DNA from: a virus
Length of the DNA stretch: 31,092 nucleotides
Reading direction: 5' to 3' (one strand)
UHGV virus genome: UHGV-0204578
The notes beneath the pieces are model-generated. The model saw nothing but the letters and a program-made list of their open reading frames with translations. It was not told the DNA's origin and searched no databases. Below, in pieces: positions 9,587 to 31,092 of this stretch. Positions within the stretch are counted from its first letter, which is position 1. Each line of letters starts with the position of its first letter. The position numbers and the translations under genes were made by a program.

Positions 9587-11353
9587 ATGAACACCACACT
9601 GACACCCGCAGATCTCGATCCCCGTCGGCAGGCCATGCTGCTGTACTTTCAGGGATACCGCGTCGCCCGCATTGCTGAAATGCTGGGCGAGAAAGTTGCA
9701 ACTGTTCACAGCTGGAAAAAACGCGACAAGTGGGGTGACTATGGGCCGCTGGATCAGATGCAGCTCACCACCGCCGCACGCTACTGCCAGCTCATTATGA
9801 AGGAGCACAAAGAAGGGAAAGATTTCAAAGAAATTGACCTGCTGGCGCGCCAGTCGGAGCGCCACGCGCGGATCGGCAAGTTTAACAATGGCGGCAACGA
9901 AGCCGACTTAAACCCTAACGTCGCCAACCGCAACAAAGGCCCACGCCGTCAGCCGGAAAAGAATGTTTTCACCGATGAACAGATTGAGAAGCTGGAAGAA
10001 ATCTTCCATTCCTCCATGTTCAACTACCAGCGCCACTGGTGGGAAGCCGGAAAAACCAACCGCATCCGCAACCTGCTGAAGTCACGCCAGATCGGCGCGA
10101 CCTTCTATTTTGCCCGTGAAGCCCTGATTGACGCCCTGCTTACCGGACGTAACCAGATTTTCCTTTCTGCCAGTAAGGCTCAGGCCCACGTCTTTAAACA
10201 ATACATCATCGACTTCGCCAAAGAAGTCGAGGTGGAGCTGAAAGGCGATCCGATGGTGCTTCCTAACGGAGCCACGCTTTACTTCCTCGGCACCAATGCC
10301 CGCACGGCCCAGAGTTATCACGGCAACCTGTATCTGGATGAATATTTCTGGATACCGAAATTCCAGGAGCTGCGCAAAGTGGCTTCCGGGATGGCTATTC
10401 ACAAAAAATGGCGACAAACCTATTTTTCCACGCCATCCAGCCTGACCCACAGTGCTTATCCGTTCTGGTCCGGTGCGCTGTTCAACCGTGGACGCAACAA
10501 AGCTGACAAGGTGGACATCGACCTGTCCCACAGCAATCTGGCCCCCGGCCTGCTGTGCGCAGACGGGCAATACCGCCAGATAGTCACCGTGGAAGATGCG
10601 GTGCGCGGCGGCTGTAACCTGTTCGACCTCGACCAGCTACGCTTGGAGTACAGCCCGGACGAATACCAGAACCTGCTGATGTGCGAGTTCGTGGACGATC
10701 TCGCGTCCGTGTTCCCGCTCAGCGAACTGCAGGCGTGCATGGTGGACAGCTGGGAAGTCTGGACCGACTTTCATGCACTGGCCCTGCGCCCGTTTGGCTG
10801 GCGCGAAGTGTGGATCGGTTATGACCCGGCAAAAGGTACGCAGAACGGCGACAGCGCCGGATGCGTGGTGGTGGCACCGCCAGCCGTGCCAGGCGGTAAG
10901 TTTCGCATTCTTGAGCGTCACCAGTGGCGCGGGATGGACTTCCGCGCCCAGGCTGACGCCATCAAAAAACTGACCGAACAGTACAACGTGACCTATATCG
11001 GTATCGACTCAACCGGCGTCGGTCACGGGGTTTACGAGAACGTGAAAGCGTTCTTTCCTGCCGTCCGGGAGTTTGTCTACAACCCCAACGTTAAAAACGC
11101 CCTGGTACTCAAGGCCTACGACATTATCAGCCACCGCCGTCTGGAGTTTGACGCCGGACATACCGACATTGCGCAGTCATTCATGGCAATCCGTCGCGCC
11201 ACCACCGCCAGTGGCAACCGCCCGACCTACGAAGCCAGCCGCAGCGAAGAAGCCAGCCATGCCGATCTGGCATGGGCAACCATGCACGCACTGTTTAACG
11301 AACCGCTGCAGGGCGAGTCCGCCAATACCAGCAATATTGTGGAGATTTTTTGA
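9587..11353 (+). CDS. P: Terminase large (ATPase) subunit gpP
   Basis: 588-aa ORF (P2 P is about 590 aa) with strong P2 gpP-like N-terminus (..QAMLLYFQGYRVARIAEMLGEK..TVHSWKKRDKW). Confidence 0.9.
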   Translation: MNTTLTPADLDPRRQAMLLYFQGYRVARIAEMLGEKVATVHSWKKRDKWGDYGPLDQMQLTTAARYCQLIMKEHKEGKDFKEIDLLARQSERHARIGKFNNGGNEADLNPNVANRNKGPRRQPEKNVFTDEQIEKLEEIFHSSMFNYQRHWWEAGKTNRIRNLLKSRQIGATFYFAREALIDALLTGRNQIFLSASKAQAHVFKQYIIDFAKEVEVELKGDPMVLPNGATLYFLGTNARTAQSYHGNLYLDEYFWIPKFQELRKVASGMAIHKKWRQTYFSTPSSLTHSAYPFWSGALFNRGRNKADKVDIDLSHSNLAPGLLCADGQYRQIVTVEDAVRGGCNLFDLDQLRLEYSPDEYQNLLMCEFVDDLASVFPLSELQACMVDSWEVWTDFHALALRPFGWREVWIGYDPAKGTQNGDSAGCVVVAPPAVPGGKFRILERHQWRGMDFRAQADAIKKLTEQYNVTYIGIDSTGVGHGVYENVKAFFPAVREFVYNPNVKNALVLKAYDIISHRRLEFDAGHTDIAQSFMAIRRATTASGNRPTYEASRSEEASHADLAWATMHALFNEPLQGESANTSNIVEIF

Positions 11354-12393
11354 TGAAAGAACATATCGCGCCAGGCGAAACCGTAACTGCAGAAGAAACT
11401 AAAAAACCCGTTGCGGAGGCTTTCAGCTTCGGTGATCCCATTCCTGTACTGGACCGCCGCGAACTGCTGGACTATGTGGAATGCGTACAGATGGATCGCT
11501 GGTATGAGCCGCCCGTCAGCTTTGACGGACTGGCGCGCACCTTCCGCGCCGCCGTGCACCACAGCTCCCCGATCAGTGTTAAGCGTGACATTATCAGCAG
11601 TACCTATATTCCACATCGCCTTCTCAGCCAGCAGGCATTTACTCGTTTTGTGCAGGACTATCTGGTTTTTGGTAACGCCTACCTGGAGAAACGCACGAAC
11701 CGCTTTGGTGAAGTTATTTCGCTGGAGCCTGCACTGGCAAAATACACCCGACGCGGGCTTGACCTTGAAACATACTGGTTTGTGCAATACAGCCTGACGA
11801 CACAGCCGTATCAGTTCACAAAAGGTAACGTCTTCCACCTGATGGAGCCGGATATCAACCAGGAGATTTATGGTCTGCCGGGTTACCTTTCTGCCATTCC
11901 GTCAGCTCTGCTCAACGAATCCGCCACGCTGTTCCGCCGCAAGTATTACATTAACGGCAGCCACGCAGGCTTCATCATGTACATGACCGACGCCGCACAG
12001 AACCAGGAGGATGTGAACAACATCCGCAAGGCAATGAAAAGTGCTAAAGGACCGGGCAACTTCCGCAACCTGTTTATGTACTCGCCTAACGGCAAAAAAG
12101 ATGGCATTCAGATTATCCCGTTGTCGGAAGTCGCGGCGAAGGATGAATTTCTGAACATCAAGAACGTTAGCCGCGATGACATGATGGCGGCTCACCGCGT
12201 ACCGCCGCAAATGATGGGCATCATTCCCAACAACACTGGCGGCTTTGGGGATGTGGAAAAAGCGAGCCGTGTCTTCGTCCGCAATGAACTGATGCCCCTG
12301 CAAAAGCGACTGCAGGAGCTGAATGACTGGCTGGATGAAGAGGTTATCCGTTTTGAAGCCTATGACTTAGGACTTAAGGGCAAACGAAGCTGA
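11350..12393 (+). CDS. Q: Portal protein gpQ
   Basis: 347-aa ORF; extensive similarity to P2 gpQ (EAFSFGDPIPVLDRR..YVEC..WYEPPVSF...); ATGA overlap with P. Confidence 0.9.
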   Translation: MMKEHIAPGETVTAEETKKPVAEAFSFGDPIPVLDRRELLDYVECVQMDRWYEPPVSFDGLARTFRAAVHHSSPISVKRDIISSTYIPHRLLSQQAFTRFVQDYLVFGNAYLEKRTNRFGEVISLEPALAKYTRRGLDLETYWFVQYSLTTQPYQFTKGNVFHLMEPDINQEIYGLPGYLSAIPSALLNESATLFRRKYYINGSHAGFIMYMTDAAQNQEDVNNIRKAMKSAKGPGNFRNLFMYSPNGKKDGIQIIPLSEVAAKDEFLNIKNVSRDDMMAAHRVPPQMMGIIPNNTGGFGDVEKASRVFVRNELMPLQKRLQELNDWLDEEVIRFEAYDLGLKGKRS

Positions 12394-19127: not shown

Positions 19128-19760
19128 ATGATACAGGTAAAAGCTGGCGAGAATACAGGGGGAAGAGAGGCTATCCATAGACTAATGGCAGCCTATGATT
19201 TCAAGTCCAGACAGCAACTTTGCGATCACTTAGGCGCATCAAAAAGCACTATGGCAAACAGATACTTAAGAGATAGCTTTCCCGCAGAGTGGGTGATTCA
19301 GTGCGCCTTGGAAACAGGAGTTTCTTTACTGTGGCTAACCACCGGACAAGGCGAACCAGGTTCAAACATTGACCCTAAAAAAAATATCAATTCTGTGAAC
19401 TCCAGCAGGGTTAAACCTCTTTCTGAGCTTGTATCTCCTGAAATTGACAAGGCAACTCTCAACGGTGGTTTATTGGTCGATGCTGGAAAAGCAATCATTG
19501 ATAGCAGCATACTCCCCTCAGACTCAAGCAACCTGCTGCTGGTGAGTACTTCTGGTGATTCTTATTTAATAGATCGCAACCAAACACCACCAGTAAATGG
19601 TACGTGGTTAGTGGACATCGACGGGATAAAAAGCATTGTAAAATTGACACGACTCCCGGGAAACAGATTAGTAGTGCATCAGGATGATTCATCGTTTGAG
19701 TGCGAACTGGATGACATTGAGGTAATAGGTCGCGCACTGAAAATCATTAAGAGCCTTTGA
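19128..19760 (+). CDS. cI: CI-type immunity repressor (186 CI-like)
   Basis: 210-aa ORF with N-terminal HTH-like segment, divergent from apl and immediately upstream of int, the 186 cI-int arrangement. Confidence 0.7.
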   Translation: MIQVKAGENTGGREAIHRLMAAYDFKSRQQLCDHLGASKSTMANRYLRDSFPAEWVIQCALETGVSLLWLTTGQGEPGSNIDPKKNINSVNSSRVKPLSELVSPEIDKATLNGGLLVDAGKAIIDSSILPSDSSNLLLVSTSGDSYLIDRNQTPPVNGTWLVDIDGIKSIVKLTRLPGNRLVVHQDDSSFECELDDIEVIGRALKIIKSL

Positions 19761-19761
19761 T

Positions 19762-20787
19762 ATGACCATCAGAAAACAGCCGAACGGAAAGTGGTTATGT
19801 GAATGCTACCCAAACGGGAGAGATGGCAAACGCGTACGCAAACAATTTGCGACGAAAGGCGAAGCCATTGCGTTTGAGAATTTCACCATGGATGAGGTAA
19901 ACAAGAAACCTTGGCTGGGAGAAAAGGAAGATCGGCGACAACTGTCAGAAGTGATTGAGCAATGGTATTCCCTGTACGGTCAGACACTCGCTGACCCTAA
20001 GCGATTAATGGCTAAGTTAAAAATCATTTGTAATGGACTTGGCGATCCCATCGCTTCTGAATTGACAGCAGGTGATTTCACAAAGTACCGGGAAGCCAGA
20101 TTAAAAGGTGAGGTCAAAAACGAAGATGGCGTGCTCATGTCACCGGTTAAGCCCAGAACGGTGAACCTTGAACAGCGTAACCTATCCTCAGTTTTTGGCA
20201 CACTGAAAAAGCTGGGACATTGGTCTGCACCCAACCCCCTCGCCGGTCTGCCAACTTTCAAAATTGCAGAAGGTGAACTGGCGTTCCTTGCTGCTGATGA
20301 AATCAAACGCCTGCTTGACGCATGTGCTGAATCTCAAAGTCCCAGTCTGCTAATGATTGCCAAGATTTGCCTGGCTACCGGGGCAAGATGGAGCGAAGCC
20401 GAAAACCTGCAAGGTAACCAGATATCAAAGTATCGAATTACCTATACCAAAACAAAAGGAAAGAAAAACCGAACTGTTCCTATTTCTCAGGAACTGTATG
20501 AAGAATTACCCAAAAACAGAGGAAAGTTATTCACACCATGCCGAAAGGCTTTTGAGCGTGCGGTAAAACGAGCTGGAATTGAACTACCTGAAGGTCAATG
20601 TACCCACGTTCTGCGCCACACTTTCGCCAGCCACTTTATGATGAACGGCGGAAACATTTTGGTATTGAGGGATATTTTAGGACACGCTGATATTAAAATG
20701 ACCATGATTTATGCCCATTTTGCACCTGATCATCTGGAAGATGCCGTTACCAAAAATCCACTTCATAACCTCAACTGGCATCGCTAA
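19762..20787 (+). CDS. int: Tyrosine integrase (P2/186 Int family)
   Basis: 341-aa ORF with C-terminal catalytic region HVLRHTFASHFMMNGGNILVLRDILGHADIKMTMIYAH (R..H..R..Y signature); reads toward the att core. Confidence 0.9.
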   Translation: MTIRKQPNGKWLCECYPNGRDGKRVRKQFATKGEAIAFENFTMDEVNKKPWLGEKEDRRQLSEVIEQWYSLYGQTLADPKRLMAKLKIICNGLGDPIASELTAGDFTKYREARLKGEVKNEDGVLMSPVKPRTVNLEQRNLSSVFGTLKKLGHWSAPNPLAGLPTFKIAEGELAFLAADEIKRLLDACAESQSPSLLMIAKICLATGARWSEAENLQGNQISKYRITYTKTKGKKNRTVPISQELYEELPKNRGKLFTPCRKAFERAVKRAGIELPEGQCTHVLRHTFASHFMMNGGNILVLRDILGHADIKMTMIYAHFAPDHLEDAVTKNPLHNLNWHR

Positions 20788-20904: not shown

Positions 20905-20949
20905 ATGTAGGAATTTCGGACGCGGGTTCAACTCCCGCCAGCTCCACCA
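20905..20949 (+). other. ssrA: att core: 45-nt copy of the 3' end of the tmRNA gene ssrA (fragment only)
   Basis: ATGTAGGAATTTCGGACGCGGGTTCAACTCCCGCCAGCTCCACCA matches the E. coli ssrA 3' terminus from memory. Sequence upstream is integrase coding/AT-rich arm DNA, so the full gene is not here. Confidence 0.75.
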
Positions 20950-20982
20950 AATGATGATCCGGATACGTCCGGTGAAGTACAG

Positions 20983-21017
20983 AAAGCCCGCATGGCACAA
21001 GCCCTGCGGGCTTTTTT
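20983..21017 (+). terminator. Intrinsic terminator downstream of the ssrA 3' end
   Basis: GC hairpin gcccgca...tgcgggc followed by TTTTTT. Confidence 0.55.
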
Positions 21018-21060
21018 GTGTCTGACGTTGTCCGAGAACATCCGGCTAAATCCGGTGATT

Positions 21061-21114
21061 ATTGGTATACGTTTAGGTATACGGTAGGATGTATACCTAA
21101 AAACGTATACCAAT
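21061..21114. promoter_or_regulatory. Inverted repeat of a 22-bp motif (ATTGGTATACGTTTAGGTATAC) upstream of the satellite integrase; candidate Int arm sites or int operator
   Basis: Arms at 21061..21082 and 21091..21114 are near-perfect reverse complements; a third copy (one mismatch) lies at 30515..30536. Confidence 0.5.
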
Positions 21115-21133
21115 TCATGAAGGAGCGGCCACA

Positions 21134-22327
21134 GTGGCACGGACAACACGCCCCCTTACCAACACCGAAGTTCTGCGCGCTAAGGCGTTAGAGAAGGATC
21201 TAACGCTGCACGATGGCGACGGGCTTTTCCTGATAGTGAAAACTAGTGGCAAAAAGCTCTGGCGCTTTCGCTATCAACGTCCGGTAACAAAGCAGCGGAC
21301 AATGATGGGGCTCGGTGCCTTCCCCGCCCTATCGCTTGCTGATGCCCGAGGATTAAGAGCGGATTACCTTGCCTTATTAGCCAACGGACTCGACCCGCAA
21401 ATTCAAACTGAAGTTGCAGAGGAACAGCAGCAAATAGCACTGGACAGTATTTTTTCAACGGTCGCCGCTAACTGGTTCCAGCTCAAAAGCAAAAGCGTTA
21501 CCCCTGATTACGCAAAAGACATTTGGCGCTCACTGGAGAAAGATGTATTCCCTGCCATCGGTGAGATCCCCGTTCAGCAAATCAAAGCACGGACACTGGT
21601 TGAAGCTCTTGAGCCAATCAAAGCTCGTGGGGCGCTTGAGACTGTACGTCGACTGGTGCAGCGCATTAACGAGATAATGATTTATGCCGTAAACACTGGC
21701 CTGATTGATGCTAATCCAGCATCAGGTGTTGGGATGGCCTTTGAGAAGCCCAAAAAACAAAACATGCCGACGCTTCGGCCAGAAGAGTTACCAAAACTCA
21801 TGCGTTCTTTGGTGATGTCAAATCTCTCTGTTTCGACTCGCTGTTTAATTGAATGGCAACTCCTGACGCTTGTGCGCCCTTCTGAGGCCTCCGGTGCTCG
21901 TTGGGCAGAAATCGATCTCGATGCAAAGCTTTGGACTATTCCAGCCGAACGGATGAAGGCGAAACGTGAGCACATAGTTCCTCTCTCAACTCAGGCATTA
22001 GAGATTCTCGAAGTGATGAAACCAATCAGCGCTCACCGTGAACATGTTTTTCCCAGTAGGAATGATCCAAAACAATCCATGAATAGCCAAACAGCTAATG
22101 CAGCTTTGAAGCGTATAGGATATGGAGGAAAATTAGTTGCACACGGTTTACGATCTATTGCAAGTACTACATTGAATGAAGCGGGCTTTAATTCAGATGT
22201 GATAGAAGCGGCATTAGCTCATACAGATAAAAATGAGGTAAGAAGAGCATATAACCGCTCTATCTATTTAAAGCAAAGAATAGGCATGATGGAATGGTGG
22301 GGTGAAAAAGTTTATAATAAAAACTGA
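21134..22327 (+). CDS. int: P4-family integrase (IntA-like tyrosine recombinase)
   Basis: 397-aa ORF, GTG start with AAGGAG 8 nt upstream; N-terminus MARTTRPLTNTEV...DGDGLFLIVKTSGKKLWRFRY typical of P4/CP4-57 integrases; sits about 185 bp after the ssrA 3' end as intA does in E. coli K-12. Confidence 0.9.
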   Translation: MARTTRPLTNTEVLRAKALEKDLTLHDGDGLFLIVKTSGKKLWRFRYQRPVTKQRTMMGLGAFPALSLADARGLRADYLALLANGLDPQIQTEVAEEQQQIALDSIFSTVAANWFQLKSKSVTPDYAKDIWRSLEKDVFPAIGEIPVQQIKARTLVEALEPIKARGALETVRRLVQRINEIMIYAVNTGLIDANPASGVGMAFEKPKKQNMPTLRPEELPKLMRSLVMSNLSVSTRCLIEWQLLTLVRPSEASGARWAEIDLDAKLWTIPAERMKAKREHIVPLSTQALEILEVMKPISAHREHVFPSRNDPKQSMNSQTANAALKRIGYGGKLVAHGLRSIASTTLNEAGFNSDVIEAALAHTDKNEVRRAYNRSIYLKQRIGMMEWWGEKVYNKN

Positions 22328-22366
22328 AAAAAAAATAAAAGCTCATTCTTATGAGCTTTTATTTTC
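22328..22366. terminator. Bidirectional intrinsic terminator between int and the cargo operon
   Basis: Hairpin aaaagctcat-tctt-atgagctttt flanked by an A-run on one side and a T-run on the other. Confidence 0.65.
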
Positions 22367-22964
22367 CTGCATTACCTTTCGAATTATCAGCATCCTGTTT
22401 ATTTTGAAAAGTCATAAAGGTATTATACCAACTAGAAACACGGAATATAGCAAGAACAGCTGCTAATGCAGAGAATACTGAGTAAATAAATATAAAGTAA
22501 GCAAAAAAACTAAATATTAATAACGCATACTTATAGAAAACACCTAAATAATAATACATAAAAGCATTATTTATGAGAATACTACTATAGGCCTTGGTAA
22601 CCAAGGCCGTAATAATAGTTAGTAATTGCAACAATATAAAATGGACAAAAGTTGCATTGACTGACATATAAGGAGAATATTCTACTTCCCCACTTTCACT
22701 TTTTTCATCACCAGTTATTATTTTTTTAAAGGCCTCATCACCAATAGCTATCCACATAGCAAAACCACCTAATGAAAAGCCCAGAAGGTTCGGCATCAAT
22801 GACAGGATATCATTCCACCACCCCTGATGAGACCAAGATGGATAAAGAATCACTGTCATTAAAAAAGCACACCAAAAATAGCGACTTTTAAACACAGCCC
22901 CAGCGCCACCATAGATTTTCCAGTATCTAGCCAATGCACTGGTTGATTCTTTTTCTTCACTCAT
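22359..22964 (-). CDS. Uncharacterised integral membrane protein (201 aa, about 4 TM helices); downstream gene of cargo cassette
   Basis: Hydrophobic segments YFWCAFLMTVILYPSW, ILSLMPNLLGFSLGGFAMWIAIG, VHFILLQLLTIITALV, YALLIFSFFAYFIFIYSVFSALAAVLAIF; start overlaps the upstream gene stop (TAATG); AT-rich. Confidence 0.7.
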   Translation of the reverse strand: MSEEKESTSALARYWKIYGGAGAVFKSRYFWCAFLMTVILYPSWSHQGWWNDILSLMPNLLGFSLGGFAMWIAIGDEAFKKIITGDEKSESGEVEYSPYMSVNATFVHFILLQLLTIITALVTKAYSSILINNAFMYYYLGVFYKYALLIFSFFAYFIFIYSVFSALAAVLAIFRVSSWYNTFMTFQNKQDADNSKGNAGK

Positions 22965-23893
22965 TACTTTCTCAGAAGCCTCTTAAATTCATCTGCTAAT
23001 GATTTTGCCCTTAATAACAATAGCTCAGAAACCGATGTTACGTCAGAATCATATGGTTCGACCCTTTGAAGTGGTACGTCACTTGAGGCATGAACCTCTA
23101 CTAATCCCGCCTCATTAATCCTGCGTATACTAACTTCACCATTTCTCGAAGCAATAAGAGCATCCTGTTTTAACTCACCATCAGGTTTAATTTCCTGACC
23201 TCGCTCAGATTTATATGTTTTATCCTCTTCAATAACCCCAATACGCTTGAAGCGCTTTTGCATAACATTTTCTGCAGAAGCGAGATCATCCGGATTAGGA
23301 CGTCGAGTGACCATATTTATACACGTAATACCTTTTAAAGAAAGCATACGTTCTACACTATCTGGCTCAGTCAATATTGTAACATTAACCTTTCCAAATT
23401 TCTCTATAATTCTCTCGTGAGAAAATATCCCATTCAGAAAGCTTTCTATTTGTCTTGGTGTAAGATGCCGGCTCTTGTCCTGCATTTCGTAAACTAAAAG
23501 ATGACTTGCGGGTAGAAAAACAAAAGAGAATCTAGCTACATTTGGTTTTAAATTATCAGGTATATTTATTCTTTCCTTTTCCTCATCTGAAGCTATATCT
23601 TTCTTTACGATATCGAACCAGTCGCCATTAACGTCAATATCTGTATACTTTAGAATTTCCCCCTCAAAAGGTTCACTAATTACCTGACCTTTCTTATAAG
23701 GATAAAAATATGATAAAGTTGCGAATGAGTCTCCTCTTAAATTAACATTGCTCGCATTTTTTCTTGCCATCCTGAATAACTCGACATACTTTTCTGGCGA
23801 GTGGGGGTGCATGGATATATTCACAGCCCCGTAAGTTAATTTTTTTGCCCTTGCCATTTTTATCTTTGTTCCCTTATTTCGTGAAAGAATCAT
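22964..23893 (-). CDS. Uncharacterised soluble protein (309 aa; 297 aa if start is ATG at 23857); upstream gene of cargo cassette
   Basis: Intact AT-rich ORF with no TM segments and no catalytic motif I recognise (no Walker A, no GS..DxD nucleotidyltransferase motif, no HxH); translationally coupled to the membrane protein gene. Confidence 0.7.
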   Translation of the reverse strand: MILSRNKGTKIKMARAKKLTYGAVNISMHPHSPEKYVELFRMARKNASNVNLRGDSFATLSYFYPYKKGQVISEPFEGEILKYTDIDVNGDWFDIVKKDIASDEEKERINIPDNLKPNVARFSFVFLPASHLLVYEMQDKSRHLTPRQIESFLNGIFSHERIIEKFGKVNVTILTEPDSVERMLSLKGITCINMVTRRPNPDDLASAENVMQKRFKRIGVIEEDKTYKSERGQEIKPDGELKQDALIASRNGEVSIRRINEAGLVEVHASSDVPLQRVEPYDSDVTSVSELLLLRAKSLADEFKRLLRK

Positions 23894-24078
23894 ATATACA
23901 TGAAAGGCTTAGGGAAAACTATGTCTTAACGCACACCATCTAATAGCCAAAGGAAATAAAAATACAATTCATTATTCAAAATGGGAATATTATTTCCTCC
24001 ACGGATAATGCTCATTGGTTCCACTACCAGATTCGTAAAAATTAAAAAAACAACATCCAAGAACAGCGCGCAATGCTC

Positions 24079-24100
24079 TCCCCGCCACGCCTGCCCGCTT
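24079..24100. other. cos site of the P4-type satellite, identical 22-mer to the helper cos
   Basis: TCCCCGCCACGCCTGCCCGCTT identical to 12560..12581; flanks also similar (ttttaatgcaggtgcatga versus ttttcatgcacctgcatga). Located between cargo and psu, where P4 cos lies. Confidence 0.6.
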
Positions 24101-24264
24101 CTTGGGGCGCTTTTAATGCAGGTGCATGAAGTGGCTCAGGCCGCGCCGCGACTGGCGCTGGTCGGGAGTACAGGAGCGGGAAAACGCATGCAAAACCATG
24201 CACCCTTTGGATGCATGGCTTAATTCGGGAAAAATGGCGGGAATTACGAGGATTTTTTGACAGG

Positions 24265-24831
24265 TTACGGCGCGGCCAGTTCGGCGCGTCGACGGGTGTA
24301 AATCATGCTCTGTGCAGGGGTGAATTTTTCACGATTATCATCCCGCGAAGGCGCGTCAGGCCTGTATCCGATGGCCGTTAAAATATCGCTATCCTGTGCC
24401 GAATAATTAATTTCATTTCCTGCGGCCAGCCAGACGGAAAGAGCTTCTCGCAGGTATGCTACTGAACGGTCAAGCGCACGGTTTTTTATCATCGTGGGCT
24501 GGTTCTTAATTCCCATCAGCTCGGGTGCCAGTGCGGCGGCCAGCTCCGCGCCGTTCTGCTGCATAAAATCGTACAGCCGGTTACGGATGCTGATGCGCTG
24601 CACCTCCTCATGCGAGGAAATGTAGCGACCGGCGGCCTGATTAATCTCCCATTTTTTTACGTCAATAATATCTCGCAGCGTCTGTAATCTGCGGGAACCT
24701 GATGCGTTGTCATCCAGCAATAATTCCTGATATTCCTGTTCTGCGGCGGTCAGTTCGGCTTTACAGTTCAGCCACGCCGTTTTGTTCGTCTGACAGGCAT
24801 CGAACGCCTGCTGTAAGGTCAGGGTGGTCAC
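24265..24831 (-). CDS. psu: Psu (polarity suppression / capsid decoration protein)
   Basis: 188-aa ORF (GTG start) with strong similarity to P4 Psu (..LQQAFD.CQ.NK.AWL..K.EL.AAEQEY..NQAAGRYI.SHE.VQ.ISIR.RL.DFMQQ..). Confidence 0.85.
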   Translation of the reverse strand: MTTLTLQQAFDACQTNKTAWLNCKAELTAAEQEYQELLLDDNASGSRRLQTLRDIIDVKKWEINQAAGRYISSHEEVQRISIRNRLYDFMQQNGAELAAALAPELMGIKNQPTMIKNRALDRSVAYLREALSVWLAAGNEINYSAQDSDILTAIGYRPDAPSRDDNREKFTPAQSMIYTRRRAELAAP

Positions 24832-24847
24832 GGGTTGTCTCTCCTGA

Positions 24848-25093
24848 TTAATGGTGGAACGGTGAGCTGTAGCAGCTTTTTACCCGGCGGGGTGTAACGG
24901 GTACTGTCGGCACCGGTGCGGGTTTCTCATCGACGACCGGGGAACGGATCACCTCAAAGATGGACTCATGCGTTTTGAATGTCGCCGAGCAGTGCACATT
25001 CTGGCACTGGAGGTAACTCTCTTTGACGCTGTCAGACATATAGCGGCTGGTGCGAACGTGGGCCGCTGTGCGACAGAAAGGGCAGCGCATCAT
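24848..25093 (-). CDS. delta: Delta/Ogr-family zinc-finger late-gene activator
   Basis: MMRCPFCRTAAHVRTSRYMSD...YLQCQNVHCSATF mirrors P2 Ogr (CPLCQHAAHARTSRY...HQCQNVNCSATF). Confidence 0.85.
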   Translation of the reverse strand: MMRCPFCRTAAHVRTSRYMSDSVKESYLQCQNVHCSATFKTHESIFEVIRSPVVDEKPAPVPTVPVTPRRVKSCYSSPFHH

Positions 25094-25827
25094 GACAGTA
25101 ACCCTCGTGCTTTCAGATCGGCTTCACGTTCCTGCATTTTTTCCTGCCAGACTTTTCGCTGACCGGGCGTGGCCGCAACGTCATGCTCCATATGTGGCAG
25201 CGTGGAGGCCGCCAGCCCTGTTTTAAAAAGCACTGGTTCATCAGTCAGACGGATATTGCAGTCCTTCACCGCCTGCTCAAGCCATGATTTCACCTTATGC
25301 ATAACGGCATGCTCTGGTTCGACATAGCCCTGATGCCCGATGGTGTTGGCAAGCGGATTTTCTTTAACCAATATGCTGAGTTTCATTGCTCTAACGAGTG
25401 CGCCGCAGGTTTCACGTAGGGCGGCATCGAGTTCATGCTCTGCATACTGGCTGAGTACGCCGTGATGCGCCTGACGGTATGTTCTGGCCGTGCTGTCACA
25501 GGCTCCCCGAAGGCTGTCCAGCTCGAAAGACAGCACCTCAGCCATGTTGTCACATTCCAGTGCCAGCTCCCGCCGTGCCACGCGCGCAATATGGCGTTGT
25601 TTCAGCTCGTCGGTAATGACAGCACCACCGGCACGAAAGGCGGTGCGCCATGCACCGGAATCATTGCCGTTTTCCTGCTCCAGTTCAGTTTTTTGCGTTT
25701 TCACCTGGCTGATGGCCGTCGTGGTTTCGTCCATGCGTCGGGCATTGGTCAGATGTGCTTCTCTGGCCGTCTCAAGACTTTCTATTGCGGGTTTAAGGTA
25801 GTCGGGAATAACAGCGGTCTGAGTCAT
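25090..25827 (-). CDS. sid: Sid (capsid size determination external scaffold)
   Basis: 245 aa from ATG at 25827 (GAGGAGA RBS); position and length as P4 sid, upstream of delta and psu; helical, Gln/Glu-rich. The track ORF start at 25893 is an upstream extension. Confidence 0.75.
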   Translation of the reverse strand: MTQTAVIPDYLKPAIESLETAREAHLTNARRMDETTTAISQVKTQKTELEQENGNDSGAWRTAFRAGGAVITDELKQRHIARVARRELALECDNMAEVLSFELDSLRGACDSTARTYRQAHHGVLSQYAEHELDAALRETCGALVRAMKLSILVKENPLANTIGHQGYVEPEHAVMHKVKSWLEQAVKDCNIRLTDEPVLFKTGLAASTLPHMEHDVAATPGQRKVWQEKMQEREADLKARGLLS

Positions 25828-25899
25828 GTCGGGTCTCCTCTTCGTTTCAATCTGAGGAGATTCTGCCGCGCCGGACACAACAACACGATTCATTGCCGT

Positions 25900-25917
25900 T
25901 GTGGCAAAAATGGCACA
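25900..25917 (-). promoter_or_regulatory. Psid late promoter activator site (TGT-N12-ACA)
   Basis: tgtggcaaaaatggcaca centred about 81 bp upstream of the sid ATG; same dyad type as the helper late promoters. Confidence 0.6.
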
Positions 25918-26004
25918 AACAGACCTTAAAACCCGGCTGGCCAGAGAAAGGTCTCATGAAAACATTACTCACCGTTTGTTTTTTTACTTATAACTATTCA
26001 CTAC

Positions 26005-26114
26005 TGTTCACTGAAAAGAAAAAGATAAGTAATACAGTAAGTTAAAGGGTGAACAGTTGAAGGTCTGACTGTTCACCGTCTGTTCACCACTGTTCACCTT
26101 TCAGTTTGTTCAGC
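26005..26114. repeat. Iteron cluster (TGTTCACC type), candidate alpha-binding ori/crr element
   Basis: Exact TGTTCACC at 26070, 26081 and 26091 (10 to 11 bp spacing), inverted GGTGAACA at 26048, degenerate copies at 26005 and 26107. TGTTCACC is the P4 type I iteron. Confidence 0.65.
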
Positions 26115-26367
26115 CAGTCAGCCACTTAGACTTTTTGGCGATTAAAAAACAGAAGTATATAAACAAAAGTAATCAGCAATGGGCCACCGGTTTGCCAACG
26201 TTTGCCAAAAAACGGCCAACGTTTGCCACTGTATAAAAATCGCTCTGTTGTGTGGTGGAGTACTACAAAATGACTTGTTGCCCTGAGGGAAAATATTCAC
26301 AAAATAGAGAGCTACCCGAAGCCGGACGGACACGACCGGCACTGTATGGACTTTGTGAGGTAGCCCG

Positions 26368-26634
26368 ATGCACACCGTTTTTTCTTCCCCGTCTTCTGCC
26401 CCTGCCGCGCCGCTGATGCCGGTTTCTGATACCGTTCACGAACGCTTTATCCGTCTGCCCGAAGTGATGCATCTGTGCGGCCTGTCCCGCTCGACCATTT
26501 ACGACCTCATCAGCCGGGAAGCCTTCCCGAAACAAATCTCCCTCGGCGGAAAAAATGTGGCGTGGGCGCAGTCTGAAATCACTGCATGGATGGCGGATCG
26601 CATTGCCGAACGTAACCGGGGCTATGACGCATGA
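26368..26634 (+). CDS. alpA: AlpA/Vis-family small DNA-binding regulator
   Basis: 88-aa ORF with the AlpA-type HTH segment [49 protein letters not shown]. Confidence 0.75.
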
Positions 26635-26761
26635 TGATGATCGCTCAGCAAACAGCCCCTTTTTCTGGCTTGCTTCTTTTCGCCATTTCCAGGTATAGTT
26701 TTCCCGCTGTCGCAAAATCGACAGCCGGGCGTGGAAACCCGAGCAACTCGAAGGCGACACC

Positions 26762-26785
26762 AGACGCGCCATGCGTCTTTTTTTG
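26762..26785 (+). terminator. Intrinsic terminator inside an untranslated leader
   Basis: agacgc-gccat-gcgtct hairpin followed by TTTTTTT, in the roughly 400-bp gap between alpA and the next RBS-bearing start. Confidence 0.55.
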
Positions 26786-27032
26786 TGTCGCAACTAACGC
26801 CACAGAGCGCCAGATAATGGCGTGGTGTGCGGATCGTCGTGCAGACGTCACTTTGTGTCTCCTGTCCGCAATCGCATATCATGCTGTCATGTCAATGGTA
26901 GCTCAGGCGGGGCAGCCCTCGGGCTGGCCGGTATTCTTCGAGGCCGGTATTTCCACCCCCGTCTGGGCTATCGCCACTGAGCGTGGAAACTCCGGCGATA
27001 GCAATAATTTGCTACTCGAAGGAGGTTGCCTT

Positions 27033-27227
27033 ATGGCTACGACCCTCACCCCGTCACAGCCTCAGTTTGTCTTTGTGTTTGCCGCCGTCCGTCGTGCAGA
27101 CCGTAAGCCCCGTATCTGTATGCTCCGCACCGTTGCCGGTGACGAGCACGCCGCACGTCTTTCCCTCGTTCGCGATTACGTCCTCTCGTTCGCTGGCCGT
27201 CTGCCGGTTGCGGAGGTGCGCGCATGA
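27033..27227 (+). CDS. Hypothetical small protein (64 aa)
   Basis: ATG at 27033 preceded by AAGGAGG (7-nt spacing). The upstream in-frame 134 codons of track ORF 26631..27227 contain the terminator, look non-protein-like and are rejected. Confidence 0.5.
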
Positions 27228-27451
27228 GACACACCACCATTACCGCCCGTGACCTCGAATGCCTTGAGCACATGCGCAACGTCGGCCAGCTCGTCAATGA
27301 GCTGATGCAGGTGCAGGACTGTACGGCCGTTCGTCGTGACCCTGCTCAGCAGTCACAGCTCACCTCCGTGATTTACCTTATGACCGCCCAGCTCGACGGC
27401 GTGGTTGAGCGCTGCAATCAGCACTGGCTGACCGGGGAGGGCAACGTATGA
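27224..27451 (+). CDS. Hypothetical small protein (75 aa)
   Basis: ATGA-coupled to the previous ORF, GGAGGTG RBS. Confidence 0.55.
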
Positions 27452-27768
27452 AACAGCCATTACCGCCCGTATTACGCGCCGCGCTGTATCGTCGCGCCGT
27501 GGCCTGTGCATGGCTGACGGTGTGCGAATGCCAGCACCGCTACCCGCACCTCACCCTCGACGCGCTGGAAAGCGCCATTGCCGCCGAGCTGGAGGGCTTC
27601 TATCTGCGCCAGCACGGCGAGGAAAAGGGCCGTCAGATTGCCTGTGCATTACTGGAAGATTTAATGGAAGCCGGGCCACTGAAAGCCGCGCCGTCACTGT
27701 CCTTTCTCGGGCTCGCGGTGATGGATGAACTTTGCGCCCGTCACATCACATCGCCTGTACTGCACTGA
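27448..27768 (+). CDS. Hypothetical protein (106 aa)
   Basis: ATGA-coupled to the previous ORF, directly upstream of alpha. Confidence 0.55.
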
Positions 27769-27782
27769 GGGAGAAAATAACA

Positions 27783-30116
27783 ATGAAAATGAATGTAACG
27801 GAAACCGTAAAACAGGCCTGCGGCCACTGGCCGCGCATTCTCCCGGCGCTGGGTGTGAAGGTCATTAAAAACCGCCATCAGGCCTGCCCGGTATGCGGCG
27901 GCTCTGACCGCTTTCGCTTTGACGATAAAGAGGGGCGCGGCACGTGGTTCTGTAACCAGTGCGGCGCGGGTGACGGCCTTAAACTGATTGAGAGGGTATT
28001 CGATGTATCTGCCTCAGAGGCCGCCCAAAAGGTGAATGCTGTCACCGGCAACCTGCCGCTGGTTGCCCCGGAGGTGATTGCGGCCGCAGAGGCTGAAACC
28101 GATGCCGACCGCAAAGCGGCGGCCGAGCTGGCCGTAAAACTCATGGAGAAGACCCGCACGGCTGCCGGCAATGCCTACCTGACCCGCAAGGGCTTCCCCG
28201 ATAGTGAATGTGTGATGCTGACGGCCACACATAAAACCGGCGGTGTGACGTACAGTGCCGGGGATTTGGTTGTTCCGCTGCATGACCATTCCGGCGCGCT
28301 GGTTAATCTTCAGCTTATCAATGCTGAGGGTCTCAAACGCACCCTGAAAGGCGGCGCGGTGAAAGGGGCATGCCATATCATCGAAGGGCAGAAACAGGCA
28401 GGAAAACGCCTGTGGATAGCAGAGGGCTATGCAACAGCACTCACCGTGCATCACCTGACTGGCGAAACCGTCATGGTGGCGCTGTCGTCCGTGAACCTTC
28501 TTTCTCTGGCGAGCCTTACCCGACAAAAGCACCCGGCCTGTCAGATTGTCCTCGCCGCCGACCGCGACCTCAGCGGGAACGGCCAGACCAAAGCCGCAGC
28601 GGCTGCACTGGCTTGTGAGGGCGTTGTTGCCCTGCCGCCGGTATTTGGTGACTGGAATGATGCGTTTATGCAGCAGGGTGAGGACGCCACACGCAAAGCT
28701 GTCTATGGTGCCGTCCAGCCAGCCACACAAAGCCCGTTCGACACCATGAGCGAAGCCGAATTTACCGCCATGAGCGCCAGCGACAAGGCTTTGCGGGTAC
28801 ATGAGCATTACGGCGAAGCGCTGGCGGTGGATGCGAACGGCCAGCTCCTGTCCCGCTATGAAAACGGCATCTGGAAAAATATCCCTGCCGCCACTTTTTC
28901 ACGGAATGTGGCTGATTTATTCCAGCGCTTACGCGCCCCGTTCTCATCCGGGAAAATCGCCTCGGTGGTGGAGACCCTGAAACTGATTATTCCGCAGCAG
29001 GATACACCTGCGCGCCGTCTGATTGGTTTTCGTAACGGGGTGCTGGATACCCAAAGCGGGATATTCAGCCCACACAGCAAATCGCACTGGCTGCGCACCC
29101 TGTGCGATGTGGATTTTACCCCGCCGGTGGACGGGGAAACGCTGGAGACGCACGCGCCGAACTTCTGGCGCTGGCTCGACCGTGCGGCCGGTAAAAATCC
29201 ACAAAAACGCGACGTGATTCTGGCCGCGCTGTTTATGGTGCTGGCGAACCGTTACGACTGGCAGCTCTTTCTCGAAGTCACCGGTCCCGGTGGAAGCGGT
29301 AAAAGTATTCTGGCCGAAATTGCGACCCTGCTCGCCGGGGAAGATAACGCCACGTCAGCCGATATCGACACACTGGAAGACCCGCGCAAGCGTGCCTCCC
29401 TGATTGGCTTCTCGCTTATCCGTCTGCCAGACCAGGAAAAATGGAGCGGTGACGGCGCAGGACTTAAGGCCATCACCGGCGGCGATGCGGTCTCAGTTGA
29501 CCCGAAATACCAGAACCCATACTCAACACATATTCCGGCGGTGATTCTGGCCGTGAACAACAACCCCATGCGCTTCACCGACCGCAGCGGCGGTGTGTCG
29601 CGCCGCCGGGTGATTATCCACTTCCCGGAGCAGATTGCGCCGGAGGAACGCGACCCGCAGCTCAGGGATAAAATTGCGCGCGAGCTGGCCGTGATTGTGC
29701 GCCAGCTTATGCAGAAATTCAGCGACCCGATGACTGCACGCGCACTGCTCCAGTCGCAGCAGAACTCCGACGAGGCACTCAGCATCAAGCGCGATGCTGA
29801 CCCGACGTTTGATTTTTGCGGCTATCTGGAAATGCTCCCGCAGACCAACGGGATGTTTATGGGGAATGCCAGCATCATCCCGCGTAATTATCGTAAATAT
29901 CTCTATCATGCGTATCTGGCCTATATGGAGGCCAACGGATACAGAAACGTGCTCAGCCTGAAAATGTTCGGGCTGGGGCTGCCCATGATGCTGAAAGAGT
30001 ACGGCCTGAATTATGAGAAGCGGCACACCAAGCAGGGGATACAGACTAACCTGTCGCTGAAAGAGGAAAGCTACGGCGACTGGCTGCCTAAGTGCGACGA
30101 ACCCACAGCGATATAA
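27783..30116 (+). CDS. alpha: Alpha primase-helicase (P4 alpha family)
   Basis: Starts MKMNVTETVKQ... (GAGGGAG RBS), giving 777 aa, the P4 alpha length as I remember it. N-terminal zinc-binding primase motif CPVCGGSDRFRFDDKEGRGTWFCNQCGAGDG; Walker A GPGGSGKS in the helicase domain. Confidence 0.9.
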   Translation: MKMNVTETVKQACGHWPRILPALGVKVIKNRHQACPVCGGSDRFRFDDKEGRGTWFCNQCGAGDGLKLIERVFDVSASEAAQKVNAVTGNLPLVAPEVIAAAEAETDADRKAAAELAVKLMEKTRTAAGNAYLTRKGFPDSECVMLTATHKTGGVTYSAGDLVVPLHDHSGALVNLQLINAEGLKRTLKGGAVKGACHIIEGQKQAGKRLWIAEGYATALTVHHLTGETVMVALSSVNLLSLASLTRQKHPACQIVLAADRDLSGNGQTKAAAAALACEGVVALPPVFGDWNDAFMQQGEDATRKAVYGAVQPATQSPFDTMSEAEFTAMSASDKALRVHEHYGEALAVDANGQLLSRYENGIWKNIPAATFSRNVADLFQRLRAPFSSGKIASVVETLKLIIPQQDTPARRLIGFRNGVLDTQSGIFSPHSKSHWLRTLCDVDFTPPVDGETLETHAPNFWRWLDRAAGKNPQKRDVILAALFMVLANRYDWQLFLEVTGPGGSGKSILAEIATLLAGEDNATSADIDTLEDPRKRASLIGFSLIRLPDQEKWSGDGAGLKAITGGDAVSVDPKYQNPYSTHIPAVILAVNNNPMRFTDRSGGVSRRRVIIHFPEQIAPEERDPQLRDKIARELAVIVRQLMQKFSDPMTARALLQSQQNSDEALSIKRDADPTFDFCGYLEMLPQTNGMFMGNASIIPRNYRKYLYHAYLAYMEANGYRNVLSLKMFGLGLPMMLKEYGLNYEKRHTKQGIQTNLSLKEESYGDWLPKCDEPTAI

Positions 30117-30125
30117 CCTACCTCA

Positions 30126-30149
30126 GACCGGCAACAGCCGGTCTTTTCC
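30126..30149 (+). terminator. Intrinsic terminator after alpha
   Basis: agaccggc-aaca-gccggtct followed by TTTTCC. Confidence 0.6.
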
Positions 30150-30168
30150 TTTCTGGCCATTGCCACAG

Positions 30169-30455
30169 GGTGAACAATCCACTGCTCACCCTTCACCGTA
30201 TATTCACCCTGTATCACCATGAAATTATTGATAAAAAACCAGAGGTGAACAGTGTGAACAGTAAAACCTGAAAAAACTTTTTATCACCCCTCACATCGCC
30301 TGAGCGGACGGTTCCAGAACGAGCACAAATCACAAAGGTGAAGAGTCGACTGTTCACTCTTCACCAACCATTCACCACTTATCATTATGATATTAAAAAG
30401 AAAAAAAGAGAGGTGAACAGTGTGAACAGTTAAATGCAAAAAAACTTTTTTTTAA
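30169..30455. repeat. Two tandem ~168-bp repeats, each carrying TGTTCACC-type iterons (crr-like cis replication region)
   Basis: Units starting near 30169 and 30337 are clearly homologous; GAGGTGAACAGTGTGAACAGT occurs in both (30242 and 30410), with several TTCACC/GGTGAA half-iterons. Confidence 0.65.
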
Positions 30456-30514
30456 TGCGTTCCATTCAAAAAAACAGGTTTGCAAAACCAAAGTAAACAC
30501 TACAGCAAATCGCC

Positions 30515-30536
30515 ATTGGTATACGCTTAGGTATAC
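30515..30536. repeat. Third copy of the 22-bp GGTATAC-containing arm motif near the satellite right end
   Basis: ATTGGTATACGCTTAGGTATAC; one mismatch to 21061..21082. Confidence 0.5.
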
Positions 30537-30735
30537 AACTGAAAGTTGAATTGATAAATATTCAATAAAATCAAAATATTGAGAAAAATTTTCAGACTCC
30601 GCCAGCCCAATCATGATTGGACGGTGTAAGGACAACACCAACAAAAACAGGAAGTTAGAAGTCTCAGCAAAACACCGACCAGACGGTGAGGAGACATAAA
30701 AGGATACGCAAAGGAGCCGCGGCTCCTGGTAACAT

Positions 30736-30760
30736 GAAAGCCCACAGATGTGGGCTTTTT
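30736..30760. terminator. Intrinsic terminator between satellite end and flanking gene
   Basis: aaagcccaca-gat-gtgggcttttt; 10 bp downstream of the stop of the minus-strand flanking gene. Confidence 0.6.
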
Positions 30761-30769
30761 CGTTGATGG

Positions 30770-31092
30770 TCAGAACGACCAGTTCACACCAGCTACCGCG
30801 TTCCACGGGGATTCCACACCGGCACTATGGCTATACCCCACCCCAAGATGCCCGCTTAACGTACTGCTGAATGAGGCTTTAATACCTGCCTGGTATATTC
30901 CACGTCTGCCCGACAAATAATTGACGAAATTACCGTCACTATTCACTTTCACCCGGTTATCATCGACAAATTCTTTGCGCACAGCCGCCTTCAGCCACGG
31001 CTCAACTTCCATGCCGTTCCCCAGACGCATGTTGTAACTCAGCGTTGCGCCCAGTTCACGATATATACTGCGGGTATCGACTGATTTCGATT
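30770..31092 (-). CDS. 3' end of a probable outer-membrane beta-barrel / autotransporter gene (5' part beyond window end)
   Basis: Frame stays open upstream of the track M to the window edge (my translation ...SVDTRSIYRELGATLSYNMRLGNG...). C-terminus ...VGYSHSAGVESPWNAVAGVNWSF ends in an aromatic-x-F beta-barrel signature. Confidence 0.45.
   Translation of the reverse strand, partial: SKSVDTRSIYRELGATLSYNMRLGNGMEVEPWLKAAVRKEFVDDNRVKVNSDGNFVNYLSGRRGIYQAGIKASFSSTLSGHLGVGYSHSAGVESPWNAVAGVNWSF

Follow-up and report, generated by a model that had tools for sequence, protein, structure and literature searches.

What does a small operon lodged between the integrase gene and the cos site of a P4-like satellite do for its carrier? 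We addressed this question in UHGV virus genome UHGV-0204578, of which one stretch of 31,092 nucleotides was analysed (the window in what follows). The operon consists of two genes, here called A and B, encoding a soluble protein of 297 residues and an integral membrane protein of 201 residues. A preliminary description of the locus had presented the pair as an unclassified cassette and a candidate novel anti-phage system, with an abortive-infection module as its most plausible identity. The last point agrees with our own reading, and the identity of the cassette can now be given more precisely. It very likely combines a DUF4747 protein of RexA fold with a dedicated partner of four transmembrane (TM) helices, carried as mobile cargo of the hotspot. 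By analogy with characterised systems, we further consider it probable that the two genes work as a Rex-type abortive-infection (phage exclusion) module of two components, a swappable cargo of the defence hotspot of P4-like satellites.

A coupled gene pair between integrase and cos

Both open reading frames (ORFs) were confirmed on the minus strand where the preliminary description had placed them, as was the overlap between them. The cassette and the features that bracket it are as follows.

22964..23857, minus strand: gene A, 297 residues, soluble DUF4747 protein with a predicted RexA/RdgC-type fold, presumed sensor.
22964..23893, minus strand: longest ORF of gene A, 309 residues, from an upstream ATG at 23893.
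22359..22964, minus strand: gene B, 201 residues, integral membrane protein with about four predicted TM helices, presumed effector.
22962..22966, minus strand: TAATG, the stop/start overlap of A and B with one common base, read from the sequence; translational coupling.
22329..22368, both strands: hairpin terminator common to the convergent int and B genes, from a terminator scan and folding.
23858..24072, minus strand: AT-rich region upstream of A, presumed from its composition to be the promoter region.
21134..22327, plus strand: P4-type tyrosine integrase (int), left boundary of the hotspot; Pfam Arm-DNA-bind_3, Phage_int_M and Phage_integrase, and RefSeq annotation of a 99.6% identical locus.
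24073..24091, minus strand: cos-like 19-mer GGCGTGGCGGGGAGAGCAT, right boundary of the hotspot; unique in the window, with 0 expected by chance.
24265..24831, minus strand: psu (polarity suppression), a P4 backbone gene beyond cos; Pfam Psu (E=2e-89) and RefSeq annotation.

The cos region is genuine. The 19-mer resembles the P4 cos, GGCGAGGCGGGGAAAGCAC, as it appears in the constructs of Rousset et al., and the 165 bases at 24093-24257 of the window align to the right end of P4 (positions 11459-11623 of 11624). Because int, cos and this P4-end alignment bracket the cassette, it lies in the int-cos/psu hotspot, at the place of gop-beta-cII in P4. Hotspot cargo is defined as variable genes between a P4 integrase and cos/psu, and this is what the two genes are, as the preliminary description had proposed. 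The flanking genes encode the P4-type integrase, Psu, an Ogr/Delta zinc finger protein, an AlpA-like regulator and an alpha primase-helicase. The cassette thus sits inside a P4-like satellite, and no repressor gene adjoins it.

Two further features noted earlier, the AT-richness of the cassette against GC-rich flanks and a bidirectional terminator at its end, hold when measured. The GC content across 22200-23999 is 0.295-0.405, against 0.48-0.52 upstream (21000-21999) and 0.52-0.58 downstream (24000-25799). The hairpin at 22329-22368 folds on the two strands with -16.5 and -18.4 kcal/mol (z of -6.8 and -4.8), and none of 200 shuffled sequences folded as well. Both genes are under purifying selection. 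Relative to a variant of 89% nucleotide identity, the codon changes number 59 synonymous to 23 non-synonymous in A and 44 to 18 in B, and the differences fall mostly at third codon positions.

Translation of A probably begins at the second ATG (23857), which corrects the earlier choice of 23893, since all 16 aligned homologues (16/16) and the RefSeq protein begin at MAR.... The best -10 element upstream of A, TATGAT at 23894-23889, is a weak sigma-70-like match that overlaps the first ATG; if used, it would exclude 23893 as the start. No consensus promoter was found upstream of A: scans for sigma-70-like elements gave nothing at 9/12 matches and reached 8/12 only. A 44-codon ORF with a TTG start (23926-24060, minus strand) lies between cos and A and overlaps the presumed promoter region; there is no evidence that it is a gene.

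Protein A, its membrane partner and their mobility

The preliminary description had seen no assignable family in the soluble protein, but Pfam places A, over its whole length, in DUF4747 (PF15931), with E=5e-99, a score of 331.3 bits for a cut-off of 27 and an alignment over positions 1-257 of the 257 in the profile. RefSeq likewise names a 99.6% identical copy 'DUF4747 family protein', and A belongs to phrog_10040. The family is large: an exhaustive profile search (E<=1e-3) gave 1,118 clusters at 50% identity. Nearly all of the 150 best clusters have about 275-310 residues, with a match that spans almost the whole protein. A tblastn search of A against 50,697 phage records returned no match, though PHROGs has both the A and the B families. 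To judge from these searches, the A family appears to be at home in prophages, satellites and islands and not in the virions that have been sequenced.

The fold of A points in one direction. Structure prediction and structure search had been named among the ways to check the pair, and both were run. The AlphaFold2 model of A, built with 17 homologues, has a predicted local distance difference test score (pLDDT) of 86.4 and a predicted template modelling score (pTM) of 0.84. Its nearest solved fold is lambda RexA, and ranks 2-5 are taken by CHL4, CENP-N, IML3 and RdgC, the class to which the RexA fold has been assigned in print (PMC11077077). Along the chain of A, the secondary-structure elements succeed one another as expected for a globular domain that is split by an inserted middle domain and followed by a long C-terminal helix. 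The cytoplasmic component of a Rex-like system is expected to have the split two-domain fold of RexA and RdgC, and A is predicted to have it. At the level of sequence, a search of A and B against PDB with phmmer gave nothing relevant.

Few positions of A are fixed. Across 70 sequences of 25-85% identity, only Y24, W80, H119, P187, N188 and G240 are invariant (numbering of the 297-residue protein), and in the same set H19 (in the motif HPHSP), D190 (in RPNPDD) and N239 are nearly so. This conservation of two His and an Asn-Asp is unexplained; RexA is not known as an enzyme.

Protein B has no match in Pfam, NCBIfam or PADLOC and belongs to phrog_20580 (E=6e-36). Its 174 homologues have in common the motifs RYWxxYGG, MPNLLGFSLGG, SPYMxVNAxFVHFILLQ and FRVSSWYD. 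The AlphaFold2 model is all-helical (pLDDT 84.9), and hydropathy together with the modelled helices indicates three strong TM segments and a weaker N-terminal one, in line with the four or so helices first suggested. Counts of positive residues predict that both termini are inside (N-in/C-in) and that a conserved central loop at residues 75-102 is cytoplasmic. RexB and Sbash gp31 have the same topology of about four TM helices, N-in/C-in, with a central cytoplasmic loop (PMC6426596). A Rex-like system also has, downstream in one operon, the gene of a small membrane protein of about four TM helices, and B is predicted to be such a protein. A Foldseek search of B against BFVD did not recover RexB.

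A and B form an obligate and mobile unit. In all 17 loci for which DNA was available downstream of the DUF4747 gene (17/17), a B-family gene follows directly 3' on the same strand. These loci represent about 10 lineages and reach down to 25% identity in A, and in every one of the 17 the two genes either overlap by 1-8 nucleotides or lie no more than about 13 apart. A search for related loci with an alignment of closer homologues gave only 11 viral loci.

The contexts of the checked loci, among them E. coli P4-like elements and IMG/VR prophage contigs, are exclusively mobile elements. In 12 E. coli genomes, a copy of the cassette with 89% nucleotide identity lies in another island, which adjoins paoABCD/yagU. 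In strain ARS-C301 (NZ_CP132983.1), where the cassette is at 9974-11466 of locus L003, this island carries DUF927 primase, Icd-like, PerC and ProQ/FinO genes. The cassette has thus travelled between mobile islands of two kinds. In Citrobacter rodentium, the pair lies in a chromosomal island beside a type VI secretion system (T6SS) PAAR toxin cluster, and another island has it together with AAA_15/21 and WYL genes. In a P2-like prophage of Shewanella, the first bases of the DUF4747 gene overlap an HTH_3 gene and B follows, and in a Vibrio parahaemolyticus prophage the pair adjoins int. Two small Acinetobacter plasmids of 11 kb (NZ_CP118966.1 and NZ_CP135156.1) carry pairs with 25-30% identity to A, directly after RelE/ParE-NadS and BrnT-BrnA toxin-antitoxin pairs. 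The B homologue of A. pittii has 265 residues, with a long extra C-terminal tail that resembles a coiled coil.

The most telling arrangement is that of two lambdoid prophage contigs from IMG/VR (L030 and L031, 4450-7438), whose DUF4747 protein is 36% identical to A. Leftward cro and cII genes are followed, in the other direction, by a CI repressor gene (HTH_3 and Peptidase_S24), the DUF4747 gene and a B gene, and this order is that of lambda cI-rexA-rexB. The DUF4747-B pair is thus equivalent in position to rexAB. Close relatives of A are frequent elsewhere: one cluster is common in Salmonella enterica, where one member occurs on at least 1,000 contigs, and is also present in Enterobacter, Citrobacter and Edwardsiella. 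Complete E. coli genomes rarely have the cassette (13 of 5,426).

Rex systems and competing readings

Several published systems bear on the comparison. Gentile et al. and Montgomery et al. (2019) described Sbash 30/31 and CarolAnn 44/43 as two-gene prophage defence systems and likened them to RexAB on account of a DUF4747 match and a partner of four TM helices (PMC6426596, PMC6426606). Mageeney et al. made the same comparison for Butters 30/31 (PMC7542560). The links of the cytoplasmic proteins of Sbash, CarolAnn and Butters to DUF4747 and RexA are weak HHpred matches (PMC6426596, PMC6426606, PMC7542560). Adams et al. (2024) showed for RexA, gp30, gp44 and Toast gp42 that these proteins form dimers and bind DNA; non-specific binding is what an A-type protein of a Rex-like system is expected to display. 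Rosendahl et al. (2026) described a RexAB-type system of P. putida in which RexApp dimerises and binds DNA and the membrane partner permeabilises the membrane; RexBpp, when stimulated, suppresses growth (PMC12894663).

The hotspot itself is also well sampled. In their preprint, Rousset et al. reported defence for 11 of 16 tested cargos of the P4 hotspot, including a 'distant analog of RexAB' that gave moderate protection against P1vir. The Rex-like cargos that they tested there comprise 'RexAB-like', 'RexA + 4TM' (pFR81) and 'HP + 4TMs' (pFR87). Known cargos such as gop-beta-cII, Kiwa, pFR81, pFR87 and Hailong occupy the same int-cos/psu locus, and several of them combine a cytoplasmic protein with a TM effector. 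Our pair was already among the catalogued ones: 'DUF4747 + hypothetical' (WP_023196287 + WP_089520072) appears twice in the table of E. coli P4-hotspot contents that accompanies Rousset et al. 2022 (PMC9122126), and WP_023196287 is the A protein of the copy in E. coli NCTC10973. Together with the RexA fold of A and the published ties of DUF4747 to Rex-like systems, this removes the cassette from the class of unclassified, novel candidates. None of the systems of a 2026 preprint on the P4 hotspot (Crouga, Bandua, Aernus, Toga, Reve and Hailong) is a DUF4747 system.

Outside the hotspot, a 2026 article in EMBO J reports 17 'DUF4747/CarolAnn prophage system' operons in Acinetobacter, downstream of the immune regulators CapK-CapS, and counts them as immune operons by association (PMC13373217). 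They have the same Pfam name, DUF4747, and come from the genus in which we confirmed plasmid-borne pairs of DUF4747 and B-family genes. They stand under a dedicated DNA-damage kinase/repressor pair (PMC13373217), whereas the window has no such regulator.

Two other named types of system can be set aside, as the preliminary description had done for Kiwa, CBASS and Pycsar. Kiwa was rejected in the absence of any PADLOC or Pfam match to KwaA, KwaB or DUF4868, and CBASS, Pycsar and Hailong were rejected for lack of a nucleotidyltransferase or cyclase domain in A. The order of a soluble protein followed by a membrane protein, which had been thought unusual, is that of RexA and RexB.

How close is the cassette to lambda RexAB (PF15969/PF15968; PDB 8TWQ)? 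The RexA structure is the top match of A and the gene order is the same. RexB in excess is known to block Rex. Beyond sequence, the differences are these: RexB has 144 residues and B 201, lambda rexA and rexB are separated by 15 nucleotides whereas A and B overlap, and lambda rex lies beside the repressor whereas the pair of the window lies in the P4 int-cos hotspot. The pairs of Sbash (gp30/gp31), CarolAnn (gp44/gp43) and Butters (gp30/gp31) are, like A and B, a cytoplasmic protein with a 4-TM partner, and are validated as prophage defence. Their hosts are Actinobacteria. CarolAnn gp44 has 370 residues, against 297 in A, and is missed by the Pfam DUF4747 model of which A is a core member. The P. 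putida RexABpp (PP_5643/PP_5644), compared by description only, is carried by a prophage rather than a satellite and is apparently not annotated as DUF4747.

A number of results weigh against the assignment to a Rex type. The sequence families of lambda RexA and RexB, as represented by Pfam PF15969/PF15968 and the PADLOC RexA/RexB models, miss A and B (E<=1), while in a control both the Pfam and the PADLOC model of RexA recovered lambda RexA. A hidden Markov model (HMM) of 154 A-family sequences gave RexA no score in hmmsearch. In hhalign, the A family against a 32-member RexA alignment reached a probability of 0.3%, and the B family against a six-member RexB alignment 0.1%. BLASTP found no significant similarity between A and lambda RexA or between B and RexB, and the A- and B-family HMMs and hhalign were negative for CarolAnn gp44 and gp43. 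The proteins of pFR81 and pFR87 have no homology to A or B. The literature yielded no published phenotype for any PF15931 member. The conserved His/His/Asn-Asp pattern of A fits poorly with a pure DNA-clamp model, which does not explain it. Finally, the authors of the RexA study caution that RexA has another role, in modulating the lysis-lysogeny switch, from which exclusion may follow as a side effect (PMC11077077).

The weight of the sequence comparisons depends on their controls, and these were negative as well: hhalign and HMM searches between accepted Rex-like proteins, namely the RexA family against gp44 and the RexB family against gp43, failed in the same way. Sequence tests therefore do not discriminate Rex-like membership, and because the controls failed, local hhalign, run without secondary structure on shallow alignments, cannot decide homology. 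A Pfam scan of CarolAnn gp44 and gp43 gave nothing at E<=10, DUF4747 included. The broad 'Rex-like' class rests on fold and architecture, not on sequence. Pfam and PADLOC had both been named as means of classifying the pair; the first placed A in DUF4747, and the second recognised neither protein. NCBIfam likewise matched neither A nor B. The RexA/RexB models of PADLOC are narrow, since they also miss CarolAnn gp44 and gp43, so that the PADLOC negative on A and B says little.

One local resemblance between A and RexA may be recorded here. Residues 241-251 of A (EVSIRRINEAG; about 23105-23137 of the window, minus strand) resemble RexA 215-225 (DISLRAKDEAG). The similarity was found by BLASTP, where it is not significant, and the hhalign alignment covers the same region. 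The RexA strand that includes this segment holds D215 and the DNA-binding residues R219 and K221 (PMC11077077).

If the cassette is a Rex-type module, its action can be outlined from what is known of its characterised counterparts, from which dimerisation, DNA binding, contact between A and B, pore formation and the defence phenotype itself are borrowed. The sensor would be A, a cytoplasmic and probably dimeric protein whose ligand would be DNA or a DNA-protein intermediate made by the phage, as RexA, Sbash gp30, CarolAnn gp44 and RexApp suggest. Translational coupling would set a fixed ratio of A to B, and B would oligomerise into a pore or channel, like RexB, gp31 and RexBpp. Infection by a sensitive phage would switch A, and the target of switched A would be the conserved loop that B exposes to the cytoplasm; depolarisation or permeabilisation of the membrane would follow, with a drop in ATP and an arrest of growth. 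The infection would thereby be aborted, to the benefit of the lysogen population and the satellite. For this specific depolarisation mechanism we see roughly even chances.

Other readings were weighed against the Rex-type one. The DUF4747 and B families might form a large Rex-like branch that is independent in sequence, with H119, P187-N188, H19 and D190 as a catalytic or ligand site and an effector unlike RexB; we regard this as unlikely. Rather unlikely, too, is a mechanistically distinct and unnamed defence system, in which A would be an enzyme or another sensor sharing an ancient RexA fold, B would be unrelated to RexB, and both the trigger and the membrane damage or signalling would differ. 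The absence of a detectable sequence relation to RexA, RexB, gp44 or gp43 speaks for such a system, but accepted Rex-like systems are equally dissimilar, so that dissimilarity alone does not define a new kind. B does have a family of its own, with strong private motifs and no structural relative, PADLOC v2 misses the pair, and the residues of A that are fixed (H119, P187-N188) or nearly fixed (H19, D190) resemble an active or binding site more than a non-specific DNA clamp. Against these stand the structural matches of A, with RexA at the top and all the next ones from its fold class, and the gene order, sizes, TM count and cI-adjacent slot (L030), which copy lambda rex.

A role in the life cycle of the element, with A as a DNA-binding tuner of a lysogeny-lysis or derepression switch and B as its antagonist, seems improbable. 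Lambda offers the precedent: RexA stabilises the lytic state, RexB antagonises it, and exclusion as the true function has been questioned by the authors (PMC11077077). Some relatives indeed lie directly downstream of CI-type repressors. The cassette, however, also occurs in unrelated elements with different circuits, such as the P4 hotspot, far from the P4 cI, and the island with a DUF927 primase, as well as on small plasmids without phage genes and in a chromosomal island beside a T6SS toxin. The slot that it fills here holds defence systems in other P4-like satellites (PMC9122126). With 99.6% identity in the cassette and 93-96% in the backbone, it behaves as swapped cargo, which argues against such a role.

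Quite improbable is an addiction or stabilisation module, with B as a membrane toxin, A as the regulator or antidote of B, and stability of the element as the selected benefit. It would suit a small and tightly coupled two-gene operon with a potentially toxic membrane protein, the copies on small Acinetobacter plasmids beside RelE/ParE and BrnT/BrnA pairs, and the growth suppression by stimulated RexBpp (PMC12894663). Gene order and sizes are unlike those of classical type II toxin-antitoxin pairs, though, and A is much larger than B and has no antitoxin-type helix-turn-helix or degradation-tag features. The strong association with hotspot and prophages favours anti-phage selection, and toxin-antitoxin and abortive-infection functions are in any case not mutually exclusive. 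Ordinary non-defence cargo (a transporter or metabolic accessory) or decaying ORFs, for which one could cite the lack of an annotated function for B and of a consensus promoter upstream of A, is highly improbable in view of the purifying selection on both genes, the 1,118 clusters of the A family, the strict pairing of A and B, the exclusively mobile contexts and the fact that neither protein matched a transporter or enzyme family.

The carrier satellite and the meaning of the cassette

The 99.6% identical copy of the cassette lies in a P4-like element at ssrA in E. coli NCTC10973. In that element, the ORF between delta and the AlpA-like gene, where P4 has sid, carries the annotation of a capsid protein. 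Identity to NCTC10973 is 99.6% over the cassette (22300-23950), 95.6% over the block 20905-24876, and about 93% over the backbone beyond the cassette (25846-31092). From these identities, the cargo looks younger, or more recently exchanged, than its carrier.

A P2-like prophage ends directly upstream, with a CI repressor gene at 19128-19760, an integrase gene at 19762-20787 and structural genes further to the left. Positions 20905-20949 of the window match the last 45 or so nucleotides of ssrA; ARAGORN found no intact transfer-messenger RNA (tmRNA) gene in the window. Given the end of the prophage and the ssrA match, the ssrA attachment region holds a helper-type prophage and, in tandem with it, the satellite. 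The P4-like element is flanked by a direct repeat of 22 bp, at 21061-21082 and 30515-30536, whose copies agree at 21 of 22 positions. The two copies are probably attL and attR, which gives the element a length of about 9.5 kb.

As far as this window is concerned, the finding has modest weight, since both the kind of system and the hotspot are known and the pair had been catalogued there but not characterised. Its interest lies in the family. The module of DUF4747 and B-family genes ranges from Enterobacteria to Vibrio, Shewanella and Acinetobacter and far exceeds lambda RexAB in distribution and diversity, and it is compact (1.5 kb), strictly paired and missed by PADLOC v2. The mechanism of Rex, from what triggers RexA to what kind of "channel" RexB forms, is one of the oldest unsolved problems of phage biology. 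If the defence function is true, a common system would be added to annotation tools, and a pair rich in motifs (HPH, H119 and RPNPDD in A, the cytoplasmic loop in B) would become available for dissecting Rex-type signalling. Should the families instead prove to be a sequence-independent branch, a mechanistically new abortive-infection system would stand under a DUF label.

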